Part shown: one piece after another, positions 17,785 to 18,866 of the stretch | How positions within the stretch are numbered: the first letter of the stretch is position 1 | Layout of the letters: each line of letters starts with the position of its first letter | Source of the DNA: Octopus vulgaris | Lineage: Eukaryota | Assembly (NCBI GenBank): GCA_951406725.2 | Contig: OX597828.1 | Span: forward strand, 6,014,001-6,078,000 | Direction: 5' to 3' | DNA: 64,000 nt | The notes under the pieces: generated by a model | Seen by the model: the letters and a program-made list of their open reading frames with translations, nothing else | Told to the model about the DNA's origin: nothing | Databases searched by the model: none | Translations under genes and position numbers: made by a program

Positions 17785-18071
17785 ATATACATATATACAT
17801 ATACATACATGCATACACACACACACACACACACACACACACACACACACACATATATATATATATATATATATATATATATATATATATATATATATAT
17901 ATATATATATACACACAAATATTAGAGAGAATCCACTATGTGGATGCTCTTACGCTAAAAATAGATCCGCAGTTGTCTCAATCACTAAGAATTGCTCTCA
18001 AGAAAAATTTTAGCACAACTATGAACGTAAACGAGCAGGACAAATAAAAAATAACAAAAATATAGACCAAC

Positions 18072-18144
18072 CCCAGACAATTGTTTCACTGTTAATAAAT
18101 TATGCAATTTTACTCACACAATACATCTACAGATCATCAGTGGG
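18072..18144 (-). ncRNA. Type-I hammerhead ribozyme (GUC site), inverted copy
   Basis: Minus strand reads CCCA-CTGATGA-tCTG...CAGt-GAAA-CAATTG-TC-TGGG. Confidence 0.75.
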
Positions 18145-18487
18145 ATTCGTCATGAAATATAATTTGTCGAACTAATATTTGTGTATTAATATTTACTAAT
18201 TCTCAGTTCTTTATGCGCTAAACCACTTGGTGTTAAATTGATGTTATTAAATTAATATCCAATTTTTTCACCCTTTTTTTTAATTTTAATTATAAATTAA
18301 TATGTTCTCAAACCGGCACTAACTACTGCAGTAAATTATTTATGCAGTATTTATTTCCGGTAATTTTGCCGCGCTCGAACGAGGGCATTTGAACATAACT
18401 GCGAATATAACAGGCCGAACTATTCATGTGTTTGACTTCGTGTTAATATCTAAGGTGCAGTTCGACAAATTATATTTCATGACGAAT

Positions 18488-18560
18488 CCCACTGATGATC
18501 TGCAGATGTATTGTGTAAGTAAAATTGCATAATTTATTAACAGTGAAACAATTGTCTGGG
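18488..18560 (+). ncRNA. Type-I hammerhead ribozyme (GUC site)
   Basis: CCCA-CTGATGA-tCTG...CAGt-GAAA-CAATTG-TC-TGGG. Confidence 0.75.
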
Positions 18561-18866
18561 GTTAATCTATATTTTTGTAATTTTTCAATTGTCTTGCTCG
18601 CTTACGTTCATAGTTGTGCTAAAATTTTTCTTGAGAACAATTCTTAGTGGTTGAGACCATTGCGGATCTATTTTTAGCGTAAGAGCGTCCACATAGTGGA
18701 TTCTCTCTAATATTTGTGTATTAATATTTACTGAATCTCAGTTTTTTATGCGCTAAACCACTTGGTGTTAAATTGATGTTATTAAATTAATATTCAATTT
18801 TTTCACCCTTATTTTGATTTTATTATATATATATATATATACAGACAGACAAACGTATGTATATTC

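Follow-up and report, generated by a model that had tools for sequence, protein, structure and literature searches.

A non-coding 535-base hammerhead repeat with a two-armed, head-to-head arrangement in a TA microsatellite of Octopus vulgaris

Results

Two head-to-head arms at the focal locus

The window analysed here is a stretch of 64,000 nucleotides of the Octopus vulgaris genome (contig OX597828.1, positions 6,014,001 to 6,078,000, forward strand), from a 2.8-Gb assembly with many microsatellites. The focal locus in it is a genuine and old member of a dispersed 535-base repeat family without coding capacity, here called family A, and consists of two head-to-head arms, one at 17913-18173 on the minus strand and one at 18172-18824 on the plus strand. 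The left arm (Z') covers unit positions 170-430, is 5'-truncated and has its 3' end at the first of two fixed sites described below, adjoined by a TA run that reaches up to ~17912. The right arm comprises unit positions 418-535 followed by a full unit, 1-535 (in the order X-Y-Z-X), and its 3' end lies at the second fixed site, against (TA)n. The full unit of 535 nt occupies 18290..18824 (+) and is predicted to be highly self-paired on the plus strand; 18290 is position u1 of the family A numbering, and the sister family B is numbered on the natural unit of locus L052. Between both fixed 3' ends lies a tail of ~105 nt (18720..18824, +) with a conserved hairpin, GGUG...CACC, which is a candidate start region for the reverse transcriptase.

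The original prediction had described repeat X at 18172 and again at 18707, and the head-to-tail spacing of 535 nt was indeed found (91% identity over 132 nt; 108/119 identical without gaps), as was the inverted copy of segment Z (18459-18719) at 17913-18173 (247/261 identical). It was also right in that no coding sequence lies between the repeats; stop-free frames in the direct arm reach 65 aa at most. Its view of Z' as an inverted piece of one array, which on undoing the inversion would read Z-X-Y-Z-X, does not hold literally: the last unit position in Z' is ~430 and X begins at 418, so that the two overlap, and the Z'|X joint has 2 nt (CT) common to both arms. Rather than a single array in which one piece was turned round, the locus has in Z' a second arm, which has a fixed 3' end of its own beside a TA run, as is typical of Penelope-like element (PLE) insertions. 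Z' and Z are 6.5% divergent and have five non-majority letters in common, two of them rare, which is compatible with copying from one template and long decay since then. A SINE-like common repeat (73-75% identical) lies directly to the right of the locus (18873-19304) and is also present at 16660-17105, 20108-20517 and 37275-37567.

The hammerhead ribozyme

The hammerhead that had been predicted around GUC 18554-18556 was found there with core and stems of type I (18485..18563, +; predicted cut after C18556). Stem I is formed by 18485-18491 with 18557-18563, CUGAUGA stands at 18492-18498 and GAAA at 18545-18548, stem II has 46 nt with a U-U opposition at its base, and stem III has two pairs and an AATT loop in a palindromic CAAUUG. 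In strand order the ribozyme reads AAUCCCA, CUGAUGA, the 46-nt stem II, GAAA, C-AAUU-G and UC, and then UGGGGUU. The left arm carries an inverted hammerhead at 18069..18147 (-; limits mapped from the direct copy), of which the core CUGAUGA starts at 18140 and the predicted cut is after 18076.

Rfam gave no match in the whole window at gathering score and none in 17900-18850 at E<=5, and the assignment as hammerhead is therefore based on its core motif and the covariation. The same intact core is present in 131/149 segments of family B, and between families A and B 6/6 pairs of stem I are changed on both sides, i.e. stem I of family B is fully rewritten with its pairing kept. The U-U opposition is found in most family-A hammerheads; axolotl hammerheads with U-U at the base of stem II are described in passages of Cervera & de la Pena (2020, PMC7229834) as cutting weakly as monomers. 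Long-stem-II hammerheads also occur at L172:2369 (+) and L262:1570 (-), outside the A/B clan and outside the Hydra pseudo-LTRs examined.

The focal copy has one hammerhead per strand; it can therefore, in all likelihood, no longer release an RNA unit, and the proposed monomer release by ribozyme-to-ribozyme cleavage at this copy has to be given up. Li et al. regard a locus as active if it has at least two consecutive same-strand hammerheads; one per strand, as found here, lowers the standing of the focal locus as an active copy, not its family membership. At least two same-strand cores in series are present in 26/101 loci of family B and were counted in 3/44 loci of family A, L017 and L023 among them, with the core pair of L017 apparently lying in a neighbouring B-type array.

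Predicted RNA structure and RNA data

Folded as a circle, one period of family A (18172-18706) gave a z of -4.6 on the sense strand and family B one of -6.3 (40 shuffles each); the antisense folds were weaker (-3.1 and -4.9). A consensus of A and B has 126 pairs, 31 of them changed on both sides, and 97.5% of its cells are paired compared with 39-44% for slid controls; the covariation largely reflects a single contrast, that of A with B, and the alignment scored is also the one from which the structure was derived. The pairs changed on both sides include some in helices between the sequences flanking the cut; in these helices Y is paired with the section of Z lying past the cut, and a monomer, once cut, would presumably have its two ends kept together by them.

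Family B is present in contigs of all 30 bins of RNA run X2. In this run a GT..AG splice joint was found and most of the intron was without cover; with copy number allowed for, the depth of B was not clearly above that of a common repeat. The X2 data show the presence of family B only. The high depth in X3 and a single cyclic contig of 565 nt in X11 were not taken as evidence of B expression and of a circle, respectively, since traces of genomic DNA, with its thousands of nearly identical units in tandem, account for both. The flank of one locus, L010, chosen as a silent control, contains exons.

Repeat families A, B and relatives

A search with the unit of family A gave 3,825 candidates, and the best matches among the 40 scored were 84-94% identical. 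In DNA run X15 the depth over an A copy was 2,700-116,000, compared with 40.5 over unique flank, which puts the copy number of family A between tens and a few thousand, varying with the part of the unit. For family B 1,300 candidates were found and the best matches among the 39 scored were 96-99% identical. A long-stem hammerhead pattern matched 5,929 places and the control pattern 17; by our own count 54 of the first 100 pattern matches listed are B-type, and family B probably has ~3,000 units, as roughly extrapolated from the start of C1.

Family B is a younger sister family of A and is also represented in the window. A related copy had been proposed at 37920-38463; 37952..38463 (512 nt, +) is indeed a relative, and 37920-37951 turned out to be flank. 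This copy, 65% identical to the focal unit, is a single 5'-truncated unit (25-535) with a hammerhead core at 38106, and it ends at site 2 against (TA)n. The anticipated tandem arrays among genomic copies exist, with up to 13 units in family B, and the arms of family A reach at most 822 nt (44 insertions). GC content is low (0.32 in A, 0.31 in B), and a four-unit array has no frame above 66 aa. In the A/B loci screened Y never runs into an RT/GIY-YIG ORF, as the original prediction required, and no PLE ORF continues the unit; the one PLE ORF noticed in the vicinity starts ~410 bp beyond a copy. BLAST of A and B against the PLE loci fetched gave no match. A third relative with a period of 484 nt (L240:1501-1984; G000:C8:67841085-67841568) has tail motifs in common with A and B, and its two ends are separated by 103 nt; L261 and L295-L299 are additional intermediate relatives.

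Two fixed 3' ends, one for each arm

In 101 insertions of family B, 147 of 153 arm 3' ends lie at two fixed sites ~100 bases apart: 74 at site 1 (u400-452, its position made less sharp by A+T-rich sequence), 73 at site 2 (u525-535) and 6 elsewhere. The same holds for 55 of 62 arm 3' ends in 44 insertions of family A (28 at site 1, 27 at site 2, 7 elsewhere). One arm per site was seen in 44/45 two-armed head-to-head insertions of B and in 10/12 two-armed insertions of A, and TATATA lies at most 14 nt from 113/125 B ends and 48/55 A ends. Loci had been picked by best match and motif match, with a bias to long copies, and each insertion was counted once by omission of overlapping or duplicate-looking loci, for example L007, L048, L052, L053, L055-L058, L103, L105-L107, L110, L114, L116, L119, L121, L127-L129 and L140.

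Permuted start points had been expected; they are neither free nor at the ribozyme cut but at these two internal sites. Not one 5' or 3' end lay within 5 nt of the predicted cut in the 101 B insertions (153 arms), and ends at the cut were rejected for family A as well (5' ends 2/62, with 1.3 expected; 3' ends 1/62). The end of the unit is joined directly to its start in 18/44 A and 58/86 B insertions, i.e. X joins Y in other copies too, and the predicted cut is crossed without indel in 159/159 B and 54/55 A segments. From the absence of ends at the cut and its indel-free crossing it follows that the template was either a ligated circle or an uncleaved multimer. The arm pattern, with two fixed 3' ends, a one-sided tail, an inverted 5'-truncated arm and a (TA)n target, is a PLE insertion signature.

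Variation within and between insertions

Divergence of B segments is 0.44% (direct) and 0.65% (inverted) within insertions compared with 2.8% between them (122 segments, 45 insertions), and subfamily-diagnostic cells agree within insertions in 568/575 cases, where 271 disagreements are expected at random. Sixteen rare letters in 10 insertions are present in all of at least three segments, 13 of the 16 across both arms. At locus L283 (G000:C1:40930500-40940000) the units of a 13-unit arm have 0-3 differences each, like the inverted partner arm. Within arrays, 55 variants are singletons and 6 are recurrent. Taken together, the insertion-specific variants, the 13-unit arms and the scarless crossing of the cut speak for a single template that was copied repeatedly; with a young source array of uniform sequence, units within an insertion would be as alike as with a circle. 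Matching and non-matching units of the two arms differ by 0.62% and 0.53%, respectively (p 0.42, 24 insertions), and three rare letters (L179, L195, L211) are found only in the exactly matching unit of each arm, which favours a multimeric template, as this is what it predicts. Runs of variants in adjacent units of L096 and L097 suggest duplication or conversion at the DNA level, or mixing in the assembly. In family A the arms of one insertion are 4.5% apart and those of different insertions 8.8%.

As a side observation, position u496 of L283 differs in 4/13 units, which follow no regular order, and the difference was absent from the other insertions sampled; a damaged template base, conversion or assembly are options. 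Scars of RNA editing were considered and rejected: unit-specific B variants have no A>G excess (5 A>G vs 15 T>C of 116), and the A>G signal in shared B variants (5/21; Fisher p 0.008 vs 5/116) is weak, with small numbers and as one of two tests, and was not repeated in family A (2/13).

Candidate helper PLEs

Young copies of a Hydra-clade PLE in the same genome have open frames of 976-984 aa, in which Pfam found no family. A translated copy has the motifs DKT and CxCx5C, marks of the Hydra clade according to sections of Craig et al. (2021, 10.1101/2021.04.23.441226); full copies have Asn-rich inserts and a unit of ~4.6 kb. The hammerhead in their pseudo-LTRs has a stem II of 57-60 nt and a stem III of the form C(A/G)AU(U/C)G. 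The pseudo-LTRs end 34-40 or 135-158 nt past the cut, the two ends being 100-118 nt apart, and 5/7 loci with two opposite-strand ends have one of each. In the window, a pseudo-LTR fragment of this kind lies at 13930..14175 (+; hammerhead core at 13943 plus tail, with a GUA triplet) and a decayed C-terminal piece of a related PLE ORF at 52118-52510 (-; 24/31 identical to P0001). Other features of the window are remnants of a Tc1/mariner-type transposase at 46121-46713 (-; HTH_Tnp_Tc3_2, E 1e-5, below the curated cut-off) and self-complementary stretches at 52730-53116 (93% over 389 nt) and 15126-15435 (99% over 310 nt), which may be MITE-like or microsatellite.

A very young Neptune-like PLE family (L161-L164, e.g. 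G000:C25:4969000-4978999) has at least 150 matches of 96-100% protein identity. Its overlapping frames of 495 and 811 aa, the latter with a match to RVT_1, suggest a frameshift; its tail is ~41 nt long, and the search pattern detected no canonical hammerhead. A further PLE search gave other Hydra-like families, of which three loci were examined and had no long-stem hammerhead by the pattern.

Neither the tails (p 0.07-1.0) nor the stem II inserts (p 0.08-0.85) of A and B are significantly similar to those of the Hydra pseudo-LTRs, and a likeness of motifs in retrozyme and Hydra tails noted by eye was dropped, as it was not significant when tested. For family B and the Neptune-like tail a nominal p of 0.036 was obtained as one of 28 tail comparisons, and beyond this no significant sequence is common to A or B and the Neptune-like PLE. 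Of these two PLEs, the young Hydra-clade element is the best candidate partner; its link to A and B is one of design (ribozyme, tail length and (TA)n target), with no significant sequence likeness.

Discussion

The retrozyme had been named as the class to which the locus belongs, and a non-coding head-to-tail unit with a hammerhead bears this out: A and B are a new family of animal non-LTR retrozymes, a known class. The family is dispersed and protein-free and has two fixed internal ends ~100 nt apart, one for each arm. Animal retrozyme circles copied by PLE enzymes have been put forward as a proposal, not a demonstration, in the main texts of two papers. On balance we lean towards a mechanism of this kind, in which a non-coding 535-base hammerhead repeat would be inserted into a TA microsatellite, in the form of two arms joined head to head, by a PLE reverse transcriptase/endonuclease, probably one copying a ribozyme-made RNA circle.

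The PLE protein of Anolis cuts and extends both strands from two tail-defining internal RNA sites, as described in parts of Frangieh et al. (2024, PMC11167929). By analogy, a PLE protein would nick both strands of (TA)n and prime two cDNAs from the internal sites; each cDNA would be 5'-truncated and the two would be joined head to head, here via the 2-nt microhomology. This double nicking with two-site priming and joining we hold to be very probable. Upstream of it, source arrays with at least two same-strand hammerheads would be transcribed, and self-cleavage and ligation would give 535-nt circles around which the enzyme could run to produce arms of 1-13 units. Predicted self-cleavage, circle formation and copying round the circle are a reasonably probable set of steps, and some insertions probably came from multimeric RNA. 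Once mobilisation by a PLE is granted, we have fair confidence that the circle is the main template. That the helper is the Hydra-clade PLE has an even chance. It is tempting to go further and to picture rolling-circle target-primed reverse transcription, in which the Hydra-clade PLE would hold one ribozyme-made 535-nt circle, prime both nicked strands at the two fixed sites and make up to 13 rounds, and recognition of the helper by the retrozyme would depend on the shape of the RNA, with its long-stem hammerhead and its tail of 100 nt, and not on common sequence; this extension is tentative and falls short of an even chance.

The same two-armed PLE insertion could normally start from a linear multimer that was made by transcription of a source array and not cleaved, with no need for the hammerhead, or, in a variant, from a template made seamless by jumps between terminal repeats. 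The three private variants in matching units across arms (3/3) speak for it, the 26 B loci with cores in series could supply multimers, insertion by the Anolis PLE in vitro was unaffected by hammerhead mutants according to portions of Frangieh et al. (2024, PMC11167929), and non-autonomous Chlamys elements are multi-copy and head-to-tail in the account of Craig et al. (2021, 10.1101/2021.04.23.441226), as far as its pertinent sections go. However, the 16 rare letters extend across all units and 13 of them into both arms, matching units overall have no excess likeness, and each array has one haplotype although the family has many; moreover, 5' truncation would shorten arrays in each generation, yet arms of 6-13 units exist. 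We therefore regard a multimer as the usual template as possible but unlikely. Short insertions of one or two units might also have been made by a PLE and been expanded and homogenised later at the DNA level, through unequal crossover or gene conversion, as proposed for retrozyme satellites in parts of Li et al. (2026, 10.64898/2026.07.22.740005) and as the adjacent-unit runs in L096 and L097 would allow. This is improbable, as inverted arms carry the haplotype of the array, the units of the 13-mer differ mostly by singletons (55 vs 6 recurrent variants across arrays) and long arms, too, end at the two fixed sites.

Two further readings concern the nature of the unit and of its inversion. The unit could be the pseudo-LTR end of an autonomous PLE, with Y running into the ORF in full-length copies; ribozyme design and tail length are those of the Hydra pseudo-LTRs, and the PLE families examined are a part of those in the genome. 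The direct joints between unit end and unit start, the four-unit array devoid of a longer frame, the screened A/B copies that no PLE ORF continues and the failure of BLAST to match the PLE loci fetched largely refute this reading, which is very improbable. Even less credit can be given to L1-type twin priming or a later inversion that flipped part of a contiguous Z-X-Y-Z-X array. It owes its appeal to the focal locus, where the start of the right arm (unit 418) lies near the end of the left one (unit 430), but in the family as a whole such proximity is about as frequent as chance would have it (4/38 in B, with 3.4 expected; 1/10 in A), and twin priming as a general rule is refuted.

The retrozyme class and the focal copy are themselves ordinary. 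What sets A and B apart is a near-invariant footprint, each start site being used once in all two-armed B insertions but one; together with young 13-unit arrays and a helper candidate in the same genome, it makes the circle-copying step testable in vitro. A and B also bear on the origin of tandem and inverted structures in PLEs. In the open-literature titles and abstracts searched, no cephalopod retrozyme and no two-armed retrozyme insertion came up.

Comparison with known systems

Like the metazoan non-LTR retrozymes, A and B consist of tandem units that are non-coding and low in GC (31-32%), carrying one type I hammerhead apiece (two-pair stem III, tetraloop), and, going by the main texts, they also agree in predicted high self-pairing, co-occurrence with PLEs and mostly short arrays. 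The unit of 535 nt is larger than the 170-400 nt given in the main text of Cervera & de la Pena (2020, PMC7229834) and lies inside the 51-972 bp given in that of Li, Clavereau & Pollet (2026, bioRxiv 10.64898/2026.07.22.740005); stem II has 46-51 nt. Two fixed ends, two arms and TA targeting are features of A and B for which the main text of neither paper has a description, and a cephalopod host is likewise absent from both main texts. In the same texts circles are demonstrated for metazoan retrozymes, whereas A and B are known from genomic copies and RNA contigs.

PLE insertions, as portrayed in the relevant sections of Craig et al. (2021, 10.1101/2021.04.23.441226), comprise partial tandems, inverted 5'-truncated copies, a one-sided tail and microsatellite targets. 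A and B agree with published PLE insertions, so far as these sections and those of Frangieh et al. describe them, in 5' truncation, partial tandems, inverted copy, one-sided tail, microsatellite target and two start sites, and differ from them in having no ORF, a tail of ~100 nt compared with 30-40 bp, and arms of up to 13 units. An autonomous PLE has an RT and GIY-YIG ORF between pseudo-LTRs, which is absent from A and B. Non-autonomous Chlamys elements such as MRC1 have a 3' end that resembles their autonomous partners, unlike A and B, and the Chlamys clade is mostly without hammerheads, both according to excerpts of Craig et al. (2021, 10.1101/2021.04.23.441226). The Hydra-clade PLEs found here have frames of ~980-1090 aa and a unit of ~4.6 kb, compared with <3 kb in the corresponding passages of that paper, and are like A and B in the long-stem-II ribozyme, stem III, the tail of 100-118 nt and the (TA)n target.
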